In this document: positions 3,242-8,367 of the stretch, in pieces | Numbering within the stretch: the stretch's first letter is position 1 | How the letters are laid out: each line of letters starts with the position of its first letter | NCBI GenBank assembly: GCA_000990325.1 | Contig: LBPS01000005.1 | Coordinates: forward strand, 17,161-81,160 | DNA from: Candidatus Nomurabacteria bacterium GW2011_GWE2_34_25 | GTDB lineage: Bacteria > Patescibacteriota > Minisyncoccia > Phycocordibacterales > UBA9973 | Length of the DNA stretch: 64,000 nucleotides | Direction of reading: 5' to 3' | Notes under the pieces: generated by a model | Database searches by the model: none | Told to the model about the DNA's origin: nothing | Seen by the model: the letters and a program-made list of their open reading frames with translations, nothing else | Program-made: the position numbers and the translations under genes

Positions 3242-4114
3242 TTGGGCAATTCTCTACGCCGTATAATCCTTTCGTCATTATCAGGTTCTGCTATTACTAC
3301 TCTCAAGATAGAGGGAGCAAATCATGAGTTCTCTGTCTTAGATGGAGTTAAGGAAGATGTTATTACAATCCTGCTTCATTTAAAGCAAGTTCGTTTTCGT
3401 CTTCTTACTGACGAACCTCAAACAGTCAAACTTGTAGTCAAAGGGCCAAAGCTAGTAACAGCTTCCGACATAGAAGTCGGTGGTCAAGTAGAGGTTTTAA
3501 ATAAAGATTTATATATTGCAGAAGTTACATCAAAAGCCAATCTTTCAATAGAAATGACCATAGAGAAAGGTCTTGGTTTCGTATCAAAAGAAGTTCATCA
3601 AAAAGAAAAGAATGATGTTGGCACTATATCTGTAGACGCTATTTTCACACCTATCAGACGTGTTGCATATGAAGTTGAAAACATGCGCGTTGGAGATAAG
3701 ACTAACCACAATCGCCTACGTATGACTATAGAGACAGACGGCACACTTACCCCTCGTGAAGCGCTAGAGAAGGCTATTGTTATAATGGTAGAGCAGTTAC
3801 AAGCTATTATAGGATTTACTGTTACCAATCGATCATTACCTAAAGAAGAAAATGAAGAAGTTTCAAAAATAAAAAAGGAATCAGATGAAGAAAAAGGAGA
3901 AGGCAATGAATTTACAGATATATTGAAAACTCGTATTGATACCCTAACTCTTTCTACTAGAACACTCAATGCATTGACAGACGCCAACATCCGCACCATC
4001 GGAGGTATAGCAAGAAAAAAGAAAGAAGACTTGCTTGAGATAGATGGTATCGGAGATAAAGGAATTCAAGAGATAAAGAAAGTTCTTGGAGAATATGGCA
4101 TAACACTAAAGTAA
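3242..4114 (+). CDS. rpoA: DNA-directed RNA polymerase alpha subunit (5' boundary uncertain)
   Basis: HTLGNSLRRIILSS and an alpha-CTD LTLSTRTLNAL...GDKGIQEIKKVLGEYGI. The track start is a TTG inside the conserved TLGN motif, so the N-terminus is unresolved (see findings). Confidence 0.9.
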   Translation: MGNSLRRIILSSLSGSAITTLKIEGANHEFSVLDGVKEDVITILLHLKQVRFRLLTDEPQTVKLVVKGPKLVTASDIEVGGQVEVLNKDLYIAEVTSKANLSIEMTIEKGLGFVSKEVHQKEKNDVGTISVDAIFTPIRRVAYEVENMRVGDKTNHNRLRMTIETDGTLTPREALEKAIVIMVEQLQAIIGFTVTNRSLPKEENEEVSKIKKESDEEKGEGNEFTDILKTRIDTLTLSTRTLNALTDANIRTIGGIARKKKEDLLEIDGIGDKGIQEIKKVLGEYGITLK

Positions 4115-4450: not shown

Positions 4451-4805
4451 TATTATGACAACAGTACATACAATCGATGCAGAGGGGAAAGTATTGGGAC
4501 GCGTAGCAAGTGCTGCTGCGAAGGCTCTTATGGGTAAAACATCAGCAGAGTATACAGCAAACAAAGTTGCAGATGTTCGTGTATATATTAAGAATGTGTC
4601 CAAGACTAAGGTTACAGAAAAGAGATTGAAAGAGACTCTCCATGAGACTTATTCAGGTCAGCCAGGAGGATTCAAACAAAAGACGAACGAAAAGATAATC
4701 GAGAAGAAAGGTTGGACAAAATTATACGAACTCGCAGTATATGGAATGCTTCCATCTAACAAACTTCGACCTCTAATGATGAAACGTTTAACAATAACTG
4801 AATAA
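4437..4805 (+). CDS. rplM: 50S ribosomal protein L13
   Basis: [13 protein letters not shown]...AEYT...GGFKQ...AVYGMLP matches L13. Confidence 0.9.
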
Positions 4806-4810
4806 TAAAT

Positions 4811-5236
4811 ATGGCTGAGAAAAAAACAACAACTAAAGAGAAAGGCAAAGAATACTTCAGAGCTATCGGTCGCAGAAAGACTGCTGTAGCTGTGGTACGT
4901 TTGTATAAGGCAACAAAGACTACTTATAAAGTAAATGGTAAAGATTTTACAGAATATTTCGGAACTCCCGAATTGAAGAAGATAGTGACAGGTGCATTTG
5001 AAACAGCAACACCAGCGGAGAAGTTTGAAGTGGTAGTTACTACAAAGGGTGGAGGTTCACATGCTCAAGCTGAAGCTGTCCGTCACGGTATCTCTCGTGC
5101 GTTGGTTCTATATGATGCAGAACTACGTTCTAGTCTTAAGAAAGCTAAAATGCTTAAGCGTGATCCTCGTACAGTTGAACGTAAAAAATTCGGACTCAAG
5201 AAAGCAAGAAAGAGCCCACAATGGAGTAAACGTTAA
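4811..5236 (+). CDS. rpsI: 30S ribosomal protein S9
   Basis: GGGSHAQAEAVRHGISRAL...KKARKSPQWSKR is the canonical S9 C-terminus. Confidence 0.95.
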   Translation: MAEKKTTTKEKGKEYFRAIGRRKTAVAVVRLYKATKTTYKVNGKDFTEYFGTPELKKIVTGAFETATPAEKFEVVVTTKGGGSHAQAEAVRHGISRALVLYDAELRSSLKKAKMLKRDPRTVERKKFGLKKARKSPQWSKR

Positions 5237-5264
5237 TAAAAAGACCTCGAAAGAGGTCTTTTTA
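5237..5264 (+). terminator. rho-independent terminator after rpsI
   Basis: aagacctc-gaaa-gaggtctt hairpin followed by a T run. Confidence 0.8.
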
Positions 5265-5277
5265 AGTTTACTCCATT

Positions 5278-5480
5278 GTGGGGAGAAAGGGGTCGGGGAA
5301 ACTCCGGTTTCCTTACAGGAACTGTCCGCTCATTGGATTTTATGTGTGAGTACATACAAAAAACCTCAATGAGCCTTGCGGAGTTCCAAGTATTCACTCC
5401 TCACCCCGTGGAGGAAGGCAGGGTACTCCCGTTGGAAAACCGTGGGTTTCCAAAGAGCCGGAGGCGACCACATTGGTCAA
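5278..5480 (+). ncRNA. candidate structured ncRNA (GC-rich island)
   Basis: A ~200-nt GC-rich segment in an AT-rich genome with multiple nested complementary helices. Examples are GGAACTgtCCGC/GCGGAGTTCC, GCTCATTG/CAATGAGC, and 5' GGAAACTCCGG against 3' CCGGAGG. It is flanked by a duplicated rpsI 3' end, and its own terminator lies at 5494-5524. Confidence 0.4.
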
Positions 5481-5493
5481 AACGTTAATATAC

Positions 5494-5524
5494 AAAAAAC
5501 TTCCTGCATGGGAAGTTTTTTTTG
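5494..5524 (+). terminator. rho-independent terminator
   Basis: aacttcc-tgcatg-ggaagtt followed by T8. Confidence 0.8.
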
Positions 5525-5556
5525 TATAAATATATTGAAATGATATAATATTTTAT

Positions 5557-6420
5557 ATGCAAAATCTATCATGGTTTCCATTTTCAATTATTGCAGTTAT
5601 CTGTTTTGGTTTTTCTATGGCTTTCTATAAATTTCCAGCTGCTAAAAACCAGAGTAGGTACTCAGTATCTTTTTGGCAATTATTTATATCTTTCCTATTA
5701 TCTTTAGTTGTTTTCTATAAATATATTCCTGCTACAAATTTAACCACTATAATATATGGCTCTTTATGGGGTTTCTCTTTTTTGTGTTTATCTGTGCTTC
5801 AAATGAAAGCTCTAAAGGAAATAGATACAAATATGTTATACCCAGTTACAACATCCCTAAGTCTAGTTATTTCTGTAATGTTTGGAGTGTTATTTTTTAG
5901 GGATGCTATATCTTGGCTTCAGATTATTGGAATAATTCTAGTAATAATGGTTGTTTATTTATTTTCATATAAAGGTAAAAGTCTACAATATTCAAATAAG
6001 ATTTTAATTATAGGGTTAGGAGTAATTTCATTGTCTACATTCGGTAAAATAATTCAAAAATTTGCTACAGGAGTAAGTTCTGTAAATATAAATACACTTC
6101 AGGTTTACCAGTATCTTTCAGCTGCAATATTCTCATTACTGTTGTACTTATATATAAATAGAAATAAAGCAAACAAAAAACCACATATTGGCTCTATTAT
6201 TTCTGGAGCAATGATTGCTATACCAAGTTTTTTGGGTGGCTTTATGTGGTTAATTGCTTTAAAACGCGGACCGTTTTCTCTGGTGTCTTCTGTTCATTCT
6301 CTTTATATTTTAGTGGTGGCGGTGATTGCGTATTTTATGTTTAAGGAAAAACTAACGTTTAAAAAAATAATATTAATTTTAATTGCCATTTTAGCAATGA
6401 TTTTAATAAAAGTTGGATAA
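5557..6420 (+). CDS. DMT/EamA-like integral membrane transporter
   Basis: 287 aa with about 10 hydrophobic helices in two repeated halves. This is typical of drug/metabolite transporters; family assignment is by architecture only. Confidence 0.45.
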   Translation: MQNLSWFPFSIIAVICFGFSMAFYKFPAAKNQSRYSVSFWQLFISFLLSLVVFYKYIPATNLTTIIYGSLWGFSFLCLSVLQMKALKEIDTNMLYPVTTSLSLVISVMFGVLFFRDAISWLQIIGIILVIMVVYLFSYKGKSLQYSNKILIIGLGVISLSTFGKIIQKFATGVSSVNINTLQVYQYLSAAIFSLLLYLYINRNKANKKPHIGSIISGAMIAIPSFLGGFMWLIALKRGPFSLVSSVHSLYILVVAVIAYFMFKEKLTFKKIILILIAILAMILIKVG

Positions 6421-6440
6421 TAAACTCATCTCTAGTTGTT

Positions 6441-7153
6441 TCCAGCCTTGCTGGTAAAATTATGCATGATATAATACAAAAATGTCAATACGTAAGGTAA
6501 ATTTTGTTCACGGGGAATATTATCACATATATAATCGTGGAAATAGTAAACAAAAAATATTTCAAGATAAGGAAGATTATGAATATTTTCTTAAATTGCT
6601 TTTTATTGCAAATGGTGAAGAAAAATTTAAATTTCATTTTTTAGAAGGTAATGTTTATGAAGCTAAAAGAGGGAATCAACTTGTTGGTATTGGTGCTTAT
6701 GTTTTAATGCCAAATCATTTCCATATACTTATAACCGAAACCCAAGAAGGTGGTATAAGTAAATTTTTACATAAAGTTTCAAGTGGTTATTCTCACTATT
6801 ATAATAAAAAATACGAAAGAACAGGATCTTTATTTGAAGGAAAGTTCAAATCAGAATATATAGATAATAATCGTTATTTTAAATATCTGTTCTCATATAT
6901 TCATCTAAATCCTATTAAGTTGATTCAGAAAAATTGGAAAGAAGAGGGTATCAAGGAGAAAGAAAATATTTTGTATTTTCTTAATGATTATAAATATTCT
7001 AGTTATAAAGATTATTTAAATATATCTAGACAAGAAAATTTAATTCTTAATAGAAAAGATTTTCCCAACTATTTTTCATCAAAAAATACATTTTTAAAAG
7101 AAATATTTGACTGGATTAAGATAGAATTGTAAAATTTTACCAGCAAGGCTGGA
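6441..7153 (+). mobile_element. RAYT-type (IS200-like Y1 transposase) unit bounded by 21-bp perfect inverted REP-like hairpin repeats
   Basis: 6441-6461 TCCAGCCTTGCTGGTAAAATT is the exact reverse complement of 7133-7153. Each arm contains the hairpin CCAGC-CTT-GCTGG. Confidence 0.7.
6482..7132 (+). CDS. IS200/REP-associated tyrosine (Y1, HuH) transposase-like protein
   Basis: YHIYNRGN...KIF, HuH motif LMPNHFHILI, ...RTGSLFEGKFKS... and a catalytic-Tyr region YIHLNPIK. This matches the Y1_Tnp (IS200-like) / RAYT fold. Confidence 0.75.
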   Translation: MSIRKVNFVHGEYYHIYNRGNSKQKIFQDKEDYEYFLKLLFIANGEEKFKFHFLEGNVYEAKRGNQLVGIGAYVLMPNHFHILITETQEGGISKFLHKVSSGYSHYYNKKYERTGSLFEGKFKSEYIDNNRYFKYLFSYIHLNPIKLIQKNWKEEGIKEKENILYFLNDYKYSSYKDYLNISRQENLILNRKDFPNYFSSKNTFLKEIFDWIKIEL

Positions 7154-7214
7154 ATAATATGATTTTTAAAAACAAAGACTTGAAAAAGTCTCTATTTTTG
7201 TATAAGATAAGAAT

Positions 7215-7868
7215 ATGAAAGATGAAGAAATAATAGATAATGAGAAATCTACAGAGGAAAAAGAAAGTATTATAAAGAGAGAAGATCGTTTTAATCCCAT
7301 TGAACTGTCTTCTGGGGAACTTCACGTTGAACCAGACATGATATATGTTGATAGTGATGAAGATGGAGATGCATTGCCATCAAAAGATGTTGTAAAAAAA
7401 CTACGTGAAGAATTAAAAACTTTAAGAAAGGAGAAAGAAGAATATTTGACAGGCTGGCAGAGAGCGAAAGCAGACTATGTGAATTTACAGAAAGAGCTTG
7501 ATTTAGCCCGAATAAATATATCTATTTTAACTAAAGAAAAAATGGTAGAGAAGTTGCTTCCAAGTCTCGATAGTTTCGAGATGGCGTTTTCAAATAAAGA
7601 ACATTGGGAGAAAATAGACAAAGATTGGCAAAATGGCATAACTTCTATATATCAGCAACTTACCTCTGGGTTATCTGAAGCAGGAATTGAAAAAATAGAT
7701 CAGATTGGAATTCCATTTGATCCTAACGTTCATCAGTCTATAAGCATCGTAGCTACAGAAGACCAGACGAAAGATCACACGGTAGAAAAAGTTCTACAAG
7801 TAGGATATAAAATAGGAGAAAGAGTTATTCGCCCAGCCAAAGTCACTATTTTTGAATACAAGAAATAA
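7215..7868 (+). CDS. grpE: nucleotide exchange factor GrpE
   Basis: Coiled-coil N-terminus, then LTGWQRAKADYVN...VIRPAKVTIF, the GrpE signature. It lies upstream of dnaK. Confidence 0.9.
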   Translation: MKDEEIIDNEKSTEEKESIIKREDRFNPIELSSGELHVEPDMIYVDSDEDGDALPSKDVVKKLREELKTLRKEKEEYLTGWQRAKADYVNLQKELDLARINISILTKEKMVEKLLPSLDSFEMAFSNKEHWEKIDKDWQNGITSIYQQLTSGLSEAGIEKIDQIGIPFDPNVHQSISIVATEDQTKDHTVEKVLQVGYKIGERVIRPAKVTIFEYKK

Positions 7869-8367
7869 ATTCTTTTTCGGTTTCTTCATCTATTTTGTCT
7901 GTCACTATAATTATAAGTTCAGTGGAGAGATTTAAATCCTTTTTTATATTTGTAAAGAGATGTTCGAAAGGGTACATAGATATCCAGACAGAATTTTTCA
8001 AGCAGGCGAAGCCTGCTTTCTTAAGCAAGTAACGAAGTGCTTCACGTTCGCTCTTTCTATCCTCAGGCATATCAAGTAGAATTATTCTCCAAAATCCGTC
8101 CCAGGTATTGCTAATAAGAGCATTCTCACATTCAAGCTTCAAACTATTTGCTCGTTTTTTACCTTCTTTTGTGAGCTTTGTATATTGATTTTGCCCTGAA
8201 TATATACTTTCTATCAATCCTGCATCCTTTAGACCCTTTATAGAACGATTTAAGGCATATTGGCTATCCTTATCAAGGACTATCTTTTTTTCTAGTTCTC
8301 CAGCAGATATTGCTGGTTTTTCTGATAGGATTTTTATAATTTTCTTTGAAAAATCACGCTTTTTCAT
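7846..8367 (-). CDS. PaaX-like winged-helix transcriptional regulator
   Basis: C-terminal TWDGFWRIILLDMPEDRKSEREALRYLLKKAGFACLKNSVWISMYP matches the PaaX C-terminal domain pattern (WDGxW...PE...R..LR..L...GF..L.NSVW..P). It is divergent from dnaK. Confidence 0.55.
   Translation of the reverse strand: MKKRDFSKKIIKILSEKPAISAGELEKKIVLDKDSQYALNRSIKGLKDAGLIESIYSGQNQYTKLTKEGKKRANSLKLECENALISNTWDGFWRIILLDMPEDRKSEREALRYLLKKAGFACLKNSVWISMYPFEHLFTNIKKDLNLSTELIIIVTDKIDEETEKEFISCIQK

Follow-up and report, generated by a model that had tools for sequence, protein, structure and literature searches.

Directly behind rpsI, the gene for ribosomal protein S9, in Candidatus Nomurabacteria bacterium GW2011_GWE2_34_25 (assembly GCA_000990325.1, contig LBPS01000005.1, positions 17,161 to 81,160 of the forward strand; this stretch of 64,000 nucleotides (nt) is herein referred to as the window) lies a short, structured and apparently non-coding element, held between two diverged copies of the rpsI end. 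The gene order is rpoA-rplQ-rplM-rpsI (4811–5236), the element, a gene for an EamA transporter (5557–6420), a Y1_Tnp-like gene (6482–7132) and grpE (from 7215), and the identical locus is found in GCA_000990275.1, GCA_000990965.1, GCA_000990495.1 and several metagenome contigs; the closest relatives by S9 sequence are metagenome-assembled genomes of Paceibacteria. The element belongs to an uncatalogued family that is widespread in bacteria of the Candidate Phyla Radiation (CPR; Patescibacteria) and absent from Rfam release 15, and we lean toward the view that its members are miniature, non-autonomous integrative elements, possibly guided in their movement. The locus is composed of the following features, all on the plus strand:

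4811–5236 (+): rpsI (ribosomal protein S9, 141 amino acids), the intact target gene (list of open reading frames (ORFs); PF00380 on the identical gene in public assemblies)
5215–5240 (+): X, the last rpsI codons (..PQWSKR*) and stop context, the functional ("regenerated") repeat copy (direct repeat, inverted repeat, codon comparison with the displaced copy)
5237–5264 (+): T1, a terminator-like hairpin, TAAAAAGACCTC-GAAA-GAGGTCTTTTTA (12-bp perfect inverted repeat)
5261–5282 (+): X', an inverted copy of the rpsI end (22 nt, 91%; same arrangement in relatives)
5283–5312 (+): 5' piece of the core, with GAGAAAGGGGUC, the 5' strand of hairpin A (5294–5302), its loop (5303–5306) and the upper part of its 3' strand (5307–5312) (covariance-model match, alignment with uninterrupted copies, hairpin A covariation)
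5313–5405 (+): a nested 93-nt insertion with its own hairpin (missing from loci L043, L044 and L095)
5406–5467 (+): 3' piece of the core, with the rest of hairpin A (CCG), GUGGAGGAAGGCAG, helix B (5421–5430), hairpin C (5432–5453, its arms an inverted repeat of 5432–5441 and 5444–5453) and the tail AAAGAGCCGGAGGCGA (covariance-model match; hairpin C covariation)
5468–5490 (+): X'', the displaced rpsI end, CCACATTGG TCA AAA CGT TAA TA, which is also the 3' strand of helix P1 (direct repeat; codon comparison)
5491–5528 (+): T2, a second terminator-like hairpin, AAAAAACTTCC-TGCATG-GGAAGTTTTTTTT (inverted repeats; sequence inspection)

As a preliminary description of this DNA had recognized from its letters, the end of rpsI is duplicated in diverged form (5216–5238 vs 5468–5490, with 19 of 23 positions identical), and its claim that each copy has its own terminator agrees with the A-tract, hairpin and T-tract found behind both X (T1, with a perfect stem of 12 bp) and X'' (T2), though a simple promoter/terminator consensus scan of 4700–5700 flagged neither hairpin; the same scan gave no promoter-like site between T1 and the core. 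That description had overlooked both the nested insertion and X'. The inverted repeat formed by 5215–5236 and 5261–5282 encloses T1 in a single long hairpin (5215–5282), and duplex energies indicate that X' can pair either with X, in this hairpin, or, more weakly, with X'', in the closing helix P1. The GC content of 5265–5490 is 0.50 against a window mean of 0.352 (sd 0.056 in 226-nt windows, 0.06% of which are as rich), so the segment is indeed GC-rich, but the wording "far more GC-rich" than its surroundings holds mainly for the two core pieces (0.60–0.61), with rpsI itself at 0.41. The abundance of helices that had been remarked on is borne out by a minimum free energy of −83.1 kcal/mol for 5262–5492 (z = −3.1, none of 200 shuffles as good), and the minus strand folds about equally well (z = −3.25). 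An ORF of 70 amino acids (5276–5488) does end in ..RRPHWSKR and mimics the S9 C-terminus. A protein homologue, which had been named as evidence against a non-coding segment, is lacking for this ORF among 5.8 billion proteins, as is any Pfam match, and the reading frame across the conserved core differs from copy to copy; the proposal of a structured, non-coding insertion between two rpsI ends thus stands. A conserved small peptide in the core was rejected because of these frame shifts between copies.

To place the element in a wider context, we compared 80 rpsI loci from GTDB species representatives, using BLAST and reading of the downstream regions (L-numbers label loci). The window shares the element with L043 and L044, whose copies are shorter by ~90 nt. 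L031 has a cut-off copy and L019 one that has decayed into AT-rich sequence, and the closest relatives (L007–L017, 88–92% S9 identity) have none downstream of rpsI. The T1 hairpin (GACCTC-GAAA-GAGGTC) likewise stands behind rpsI in the more distant clade of L043, L044, L031 and L045 and as a variant in L019, and is not found behind rpsI in L007–L017. A 25-nt pattern taken from the 5' core matched 12 metagenome loci, and a scan of viral contigs with a looser pattern returned 26 loci that were chance matches only. A covariance model of 93 positions scores 52–109 bits in 19 distinct loci and 10–22 bits on the opposite strands, and recognizes the window copy in two pieces (5283–5357, 32 bits; 5379–5468, 48 bits). 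The conserved unit spans ~95 nt (80–106 nt) and consists of GA(A/G)A(A/G)GGGGUC, hairpin A (CGGGRAAAC, loop, GUUUYCCCG), GUGGAGGAAGGCAG, an optional and variable helix B, hairpin C (UUGGAAAACC-GUG-GGUUUCCAA with a bulged A) and a short purine-rich tail, with joining strands that are nearly invariant and rich in purines. Our searches of the literature on CPR non-coding RNA (ncRNA) motifs, miniature integrative elements and rpsI-linked insertions found no published description of it.

The preliminary description had suggested that related loci be examined for covariation, and covarying hairpins are found in 21 distinct copies. Over the 18 stem pairs of these sequences, 99.2% of pairings are standard, and double changes occur at seven of the 18 pairs, five of these being among the nine pairs of hairpin C. 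Not one of 500 shuffles reaches the observed percentage paired, the number of pairs or of cells with double changes, or the covariation score, while the count of further pair types does not exceed the shuffles (378/500). Although the alignment was fitted to the model, which favours pairing, controls with slid partners pair at just 28–71%, and compensatory exchanges (U-A/G-C/C-G and G-C/A-U) are plain in the raw sequences. The stems contain about nine G-U pairs and no A-C pair, which suggests that the plus strand is the one that folds; the module most likely does so either in RNA or in single-stranded DNA (ssDNA).

Read in antisense, the core encodes the peptide motif LGNPRFS..FLHG[EK]TxV[SF]PTPF, and a profile of such translations retrieved 27 spurious "proteins" (P0001–P0027) from a protein collection; all ten of the contigs fetched for them carry the element according to the covariance model. 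These spurious ORFs, of which there are at least 27, are partly fused to genuine N-termini (murD, RNase HI, glycosyltransferase, dehydratase) and form a class of annotation artefact in CPR genomes.

The distribution of the family is patchy, with multiple copies at multiple targets. Behind rpsI it is found in the window, L043, L044, L031, L019, L089/L091, L093, L095 and L097, and probably also in L094, the contig of which stops before the gene. Other copies lie behind rplK (L129), tRNA-Arg(CCU) (L125), tRNA-Ala (L133), tRNA-Met (L135/L137) and the gene for transfer-messenger RNA (tmRNA; L132), and a single 14.5-kb contig (L088) holds two full copies, behind tRNA-Gly(GCC) and tRNA-Arg(GCG). In L125 the full copy is accompanied by a truncated tandem core (3993–4077, minus strand, 28 bits); at this locus X equals X'' for 23 nt, and X' shows 17 nt of perfect complementarity. 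A further set lies within the first 13–20 codons of murD (L098, and the fusion ORFs P0009 and P0022), a GT4 glycosyltransferase gene (L126), the RNase HI gene (L127) and a class II aminoacyl-tRNA synthetase (aaRS) gene (L130/L131). In L128 (2218–2760) an antisense copy splits the gene for pterin-4a-carbinolamine dehydratase exactly between ..GHHPD and LNFGWGY.. without a usable replacement, and the "protein" P0008 from this locus is composed of the N-terminal 73 dehydratase residues fused to antisense element sequence. Two placements are intergenic (L087/L090 and L092). Relative to its target the element is sense at 3' gene ends (rpsI, rplK, tRNAs) and at the aaRS gene, and antisense at the murD, glycosyltransferase, RNase HI and dehydratase genes; this mixture indicates that the architecture follows the DNA and not the transcript of the target.

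Most gene-linked copies stand between an intact target end and a displaced duplicate of it, and X' adjoins the 5' edge of the core as an inverted copy of the target sequence across the junction, matching the functional copy there better than the displaced one. The combination of a regenerated target and a displaced fragment, by which tDNA islands are defined (Islander, PMC4383910), occurs at rpsI, rplK, tRNA, tmRNA, murD, glycosyltransferase, RNase HI and aaRS genes. At rpsI, ten pairs of ends were compared codon by codon (including L075, with a different cargo family, and L073, with a 1.7-kb insertion). From the Trp codon to the stop, the functional and displaced ends differ by 18 synonymous (28 nt) and two nonsynonymous (3 nt) codon changes, although single-base changes made at random here would be synonymous in just 16–20% of cases, whereas the three codons to the left of Trp show five synonymous vs 16 nonsynonymous changes. 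This contrast places the junction at the Trp codon, and the synonymous bias to its right indicates that both copies evolved as working S9 ends, which is the expectation if one copy was imported with the element. Examples are AGT/TCA in the window, TCA AAA AGA TAA vs AGC AAA CGC TAG, and TAA/TAG; the TCA serine codon of X'' is that of the real rpsI ends of L007, L011, L017 and L050, whereas the functional copy X uses AGT. Exceptions to intact coding do occur among displaced ends, with an in-frame stop just before the Trp codon in L097 and a Ser-to-Gly change in L095. At the 5' ends of murD, glycosyltransferase, RNase HI and aaRS genes the displaced fragments encode near-identical N-termini with different codons, as in murD (MDYKDYFKGKKITLMGLG vs MNYKSFFKNKRITIMGLG), the glycosyltransferase (VLFVITKSNFGGA vs ILFVITKSNFGGA, nine synonymous codons) and RNase HI (YTDGGARG(K/N)PG).

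Given these data, the proposal that the segment is a minimal RNase P-like RNA is wrong, and is refuted as far as tests of sequence and structure allow; we see practically no chance that it, or another universal RNA such as that of the signal recognition particle (SRP), 6S or tmRNA, explains the family. The GC-rich, structured RNA candidate in an AT-rich CPR genome does share with bacterial RNase P RNA short resemblances to CR-I, CR-V and GGCAGGGUG, yet it fails every family test applied. At gathering score, the only matches of Rfam release 15 anywhere in the window are two tRNAs, and even at E ≤ 10 the covariance-model search that had been proposed for RNase P, SRP, 6S and tmRNA returns terminator look-alikes only at 5150–5600; nine loci with uninterrupted copies match no Rfam family for the element at gathering score, and the uninterrupted relatives L098 and L093 match none of the four at E ≤ 10. 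This silence is meaningful because diverged CPR RNase P RNAs are recoverable with Rfam models at lowered thresholds (PMC8172020; Lui et al.). The CUCCGG/CCGGAG complementarity that had been compared to helix P4 is present in the window but extends to 6 nt only there and in L043, L044 and L095 (3–5 nt elsewhere), and its 5' partner is the loop of the covarying hairpin A, which varies freely across the family. Moreover, the conserved unit comprises just 80–106 nt and two hairpins, and the element is patchy, in either orientation and at many genes, is missing at rpsI of the closest relatives, and is not the single essential copy expected of RNase P, with two copies within 1.1 kb in L088 and a full and a truncated tandem copy in L125. 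A genuine tmRNA does adjoin one copy (L132, detected with ARAGORN), as target and not as element. A pseudoknot between the hairpin A loop and the 3' tail ("P4") and a kissing interaction of the A and C loops were also considered and rejected, their complementarity not being kept across the family, and the apparent complementarity of the 3' strand of hairpin A and the 5' strand of hairpin C is a reflection of the similarity between the two hairpins.

We hypothesize that 5237–5476 of the window represents an element that entered rpsI immediately behind the Trp codon, a position four codons ahead of the stop, in the manner of a tiny genomic island. The incoming DNA would bring its own last codons (AGT AAA CGT TAA) together with the terminator T1, leaving S9 intact, and would push the original gene end (TCA AAA CGT TAA) to the far side as X''. 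Between the two gene ends would lie the inverted copy X' and the ~95-nt module, the only conserved cargo, which a helix of X' and X'' would close in about half of the copies. A free form would join the left part of X'' to the right part of X as an att-like site beside T1 and X' (circle junction ..GGCGACCACATTGG joined to AGTAAACGTTAA...), and the empty rpsI site would read CCACAATGG joined to TCAAAACGTTAATAT. Because the element encodes no enzyme, mobility would presumably depend on site-specific or short-homology recombination catalysed in trans, in which the conserved module and X' may both have a role.

Several observations weigh against this scenario. Among the copies examined, none contains or adjoins a gene for a recombinase, transposase or reverse transcriptase; empty sites were seen in related species only, with no excised form and no empty/filled pair within one population; and there is no usable gene-end duplicate in L087, L092 or L128. 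X' has no counterpart in classical integrase islands, and a fixed attP is difficult to reconcile with one core family whose replacement ends belong to more than 12 different genes. The side of the core on which the replacement end stands varies (3' in L130), X and X'' may be identical around the junction over only 3 nt, as in the window, and within fixed flanks the closing helix X':X'' beats shuffles in 10 of 22 copies. T1 differs between nearly identical cores (L095 vs L043), so the replacement end may be carried in part and in part homogenized after insertion; a comparison of the rpsI 3' end of the window with the L043 clade and with L007/L008 in 30-nt bins gave no clear signal of a mosaic. 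Nor did searches around the copies uncover an integrase: no ORF within the element has a homologue or a Pfam domain, and Pfam finds no recombinase domain in the flanking ORFs and one GIY-YIG gene (L088). The latter is a small nuclease gene (7725–7985, minus strand) directly upstream of the element-bearing tRNA-Arg. A programmable class of miniature mobile elements, in which the module, as RNA or as a folded single strand, recruits a recombinase encoded elsewhere and X' serves as the guide across the target junction, is a tentative idea to which we give a minor share of our belief. If guided in this way, the element would need only a changed X'/X'' and a captured replacement end for each new gene end, which would explain one core at more than 12 targets.

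It is also unlikely, in our assessment, that the copies are remnants of an ssDNA transposon of the IS200/IS605 type, similar to palindrome-associated transposable elements (PATEs) or to REPINs. Hairpins A and C would then be left- and right-end hairpins bound in trans by a Y1 HUH transposase, X' would be an extended guide that pairs with the left flank X and with the element 3' end X'' and sets the cleavage sites, and the gene-end piece between X and X' would be host DNA captured on a guide shift. Pairing of guide and cleavage site has reportedly been established for IS608, and the family does have two similar covarying hairpins near its two ends (hairpin C with a bulged A, and with a variable distance from the true ends), a strand-specific structure tolerant of G-T/U, an X' whose complementarity to the flank spans the junction, one copy (L128) that sits precisely between two codons and lacks a clear target duplication and, in the window, a PF01797 Y1_Tnp gene 1 kb away that is bracketed by perfect 18-bp inverted repeats. 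However, there is no conserved target of 4–5 nt, the left flanks being as different as ..AATGG, ..CTCCGCC, a T-loop and others; pairing extends over 8–22 nt instead of 4; and most copies have long, diverged target duplicates (9–45 nt) of a kind that IS200/IS605 does not make. The repeats around the Y1 gene bear no relation to the core, and tblastn of the window Y1_Tnp against all fetched loci (short windows) matched identical assemblies only, leaving this protein a candidate enzyme by proximity only. We find it comparably improbable that the family is an immobile resident, either an ncRNA gene or a cis-acting RNA of 3' or 5' untranslated regions (a small RNA, protein sponge, riboswitch-like RNA or ribozyme), with X, X' and X'' as the alternative pairing partners of a switch coupled to the neighbouring gene. 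The family combines covariation with nearly invariant unpaired segments, as aptamers and ribozymes do, X':X and X':X'' are mutually exclusive helices, a joining strand contains a Shine-Dalgarno-like GGAGG, and L087 has a sigma-70-like TTGTCA-17-TAACAT just upstream and rpmF downstream. A resident RNA would, however, be expected to follow the target transcript, which an element that is sense at some targets and antisense at others does not; pairing needs do not explain why displaced copies diverge by synonymous changes only; the element is dispensable in close relatives and decayed in L019; and the window copy has no promoter-like site between T1 and the core. Nor do the copies keep the fixed position and orientation upstream of a coherent gene set that characterize riboswitches and cis-leaders, being found downstream of rpsI, rplK and tRNAs or in the 5' ends of unrelated genes.

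An intron-like element, reaching from within X to the same point of X'' and removed from read-through transcripts so that the codons of X'' end the mRNA, would account for the sharp boundary between coding and non-coding sequence at the Trp codon in X'', with X'' kept under coding selection, a spliced junction of CCACAATGG joined to TCAAAACG, and X' as a possible internal guide that pairs with the upstream exon end. We consider this very unlikely: X already carries a stop and a terminator and makes splicing unnecessary, both orientations relative to targets occur, Rfam searches of the window copy and nine loci match no group I or group II intron model, ~95 nt is far below the size of known self-splicing introns, and the stop in the displaced end of L097 and the amino acid change in that of L095 do not fit. 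No more credible is a neutral by-product of local, partial duplication of the rpsI end and extension of the terminator hairpin by quasipalindrome correction, with junk in between. Sites without a core, such as L056 (X-T1-X') and L045 (T1 alone), and the long perfect hairpins that overlap the stop codon in L075 and L084, can be cited in its favour; the supposed junk is, however, conserved at 52–109 bits across unrelated loci with compensatory changes, and multi-base synonymous switches (AGT/TCA, AGA/CGC) are not expected from local duplication and drift. The L056 arrangement (1239–1300; rpsI end, terminator and inverted rpsI-end copy) and the lone T1 hairpin of L045 (3384–3430) may each be a footprint or a precursor of the element. 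Translational bypassing, diversity-generating retroelements, retrons, integron attC sites, bulge-helix-bulge introns and tmRNA-like tagging were dropped for a missing reverse transcriptase, the absence of a core-site consensus, the occurrence of both orientations or the intact stop in X.

The 93 nt nested within the element at 5313–5405 carry their own hairpin (−26 kcal/mol) and break the 3' strand of hairpin A; their start is shared by L031 (3491–3525), and a homologue stands at an unrelated intergenic site in Ca. Lloydbacteria (L130/L131, 3252–3332, minus strand), matching them fully over the first 13 nt and at 85% over the last 47 nt. In the window and in L130/L131 the insertion lies between TTTCC and YCCG, and it looks like a member of a second family of small elements, mobile or structured. 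The core on its flanks is still identical to intact copies, and L031 differs from the window by a compensatory G-C/A-U pair in hairpin A, so the interrupted copy does not look decayed. On a larger scale, 7150–7232 of the window (hairpin AAAGACTTGAAAAAGTCTCT, TTTTTGTATA and the start of grpE) is homologous to the sequence directly behind rpsI in L007/L008, which indicates that everything from 5237 to ~7160 (element, EamA and Y1_Tnp genes) was inserted between rpsI and grpE; the same hairpin, TTTTTGTATA and grpE start stand behind X'' in L043. The EamA and Y1_Tnp genes (5557–7132) are possibly a second, tandem insertion at this site. The Y1 gene (6482–7132, PF01797, an IS200-like Y1 transposase ~1 kb from the element) is bracketed by the 18-bp inverted repeats TTCCAGCCTTGCTGGTAA at 6440–6457 and 7137–7154, which have only these two copies in the window and each of which holds a CCAGC-ctt-GCTGG mini-hairpin; gene and repeats together resemble a repetitive extragenic palindrome (REP) with its REP-associated tyrosine transposase (RAYT), or a small insertion sequence. 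Elsewhere, L075 (3384–3640) has three successive S-K-R-stop ends behind rpsI with a different GC-rich cargo, and L073 (3384–5140) has a small, rod-like GC-rich hairpin and a 486-amino acid ORF without a Pfam match between flanking direct repeats of ~45 nt, followed by a displaced SPTWSKR*. These two loci reveal the rpsI 3' end as a repeated landing place, an insertion hot spot in Paceibacteria.

Genomic islands and integrative genetic elements are known from tRNA, tmRNA and conserved protein genes (PMC4383910; PMC7192596), and the elements described here resemble them in that the target is split and regenerated by sequence on the element side, with a displaced fragment marking the other end, in that they target tRNA and tmRNA genes from the T-loop to the 3' end and conserved protein genes at their ends, and in that they accumulate in tandem at one site (L075, L125). 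Unlike islands of several kb to more than 100 kb, they measure 150–250 bp, lack an integrase or any other gene, and include an additional inverted copy of the target (X'); one cargo family, a conserved structured module, is spread over many targets. With IS200/IS605 and PATEs, and with REP/REPIN and RAYT, they share small size, hairpins, strand specificity, a non-coding nature, a position behind genes, an internal sequence that could pair with the flank as a guide does with its cleavage site, and a Y1 HUH gene in the same region; they differ in their longer complementarity (8–22 nt), the lack of a conserved short target, their diverged target duplicates and a core unrelated to the repeats around the window Y1 gene. 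As in integron attC and CTXphi attP(+), an att-like sequence and its inverted copy can fold as a hairpin (X:X'), a resemblance only, and such a folded single-strand site would display the target in duplex form, mismatched close to the junction; an R''/L''/L'/R' core-site consensus, a dif-like target and a demonstrated link to IntI or Xer are all missing here. The guide RNAs of IS110/IS1111 (bridge RNA, seekRNA) offer another resemblance, and no more than that, as structured ncRNAs of ~100–180 nt in a mobile element with a target-matching sequence, but there is no adjacent DEDD recombinase here, no Rfam match, and the guide would be one contiguous stem strand and not split loop segments.

CPR bacteria have tiny genomes, and to our knowledge very little is known of their mobile DNA and ncRNAs. 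An element that contains no gene and leaves undamaged the essential genes at whose ends it inserts (ribosomal proteins, tRNAs, tmRNA, murD) would be the smallest known example of an island architecture. The target-complementary segment beside a conserved fold makes RNA- or hairpin-guided recombination directly testable. In CPR annotations, copies of the element create spurious ORFs, fusion "proteins" with real N-termini and extra gene-end fragments, and they also mark horizontal exchange between lineages.

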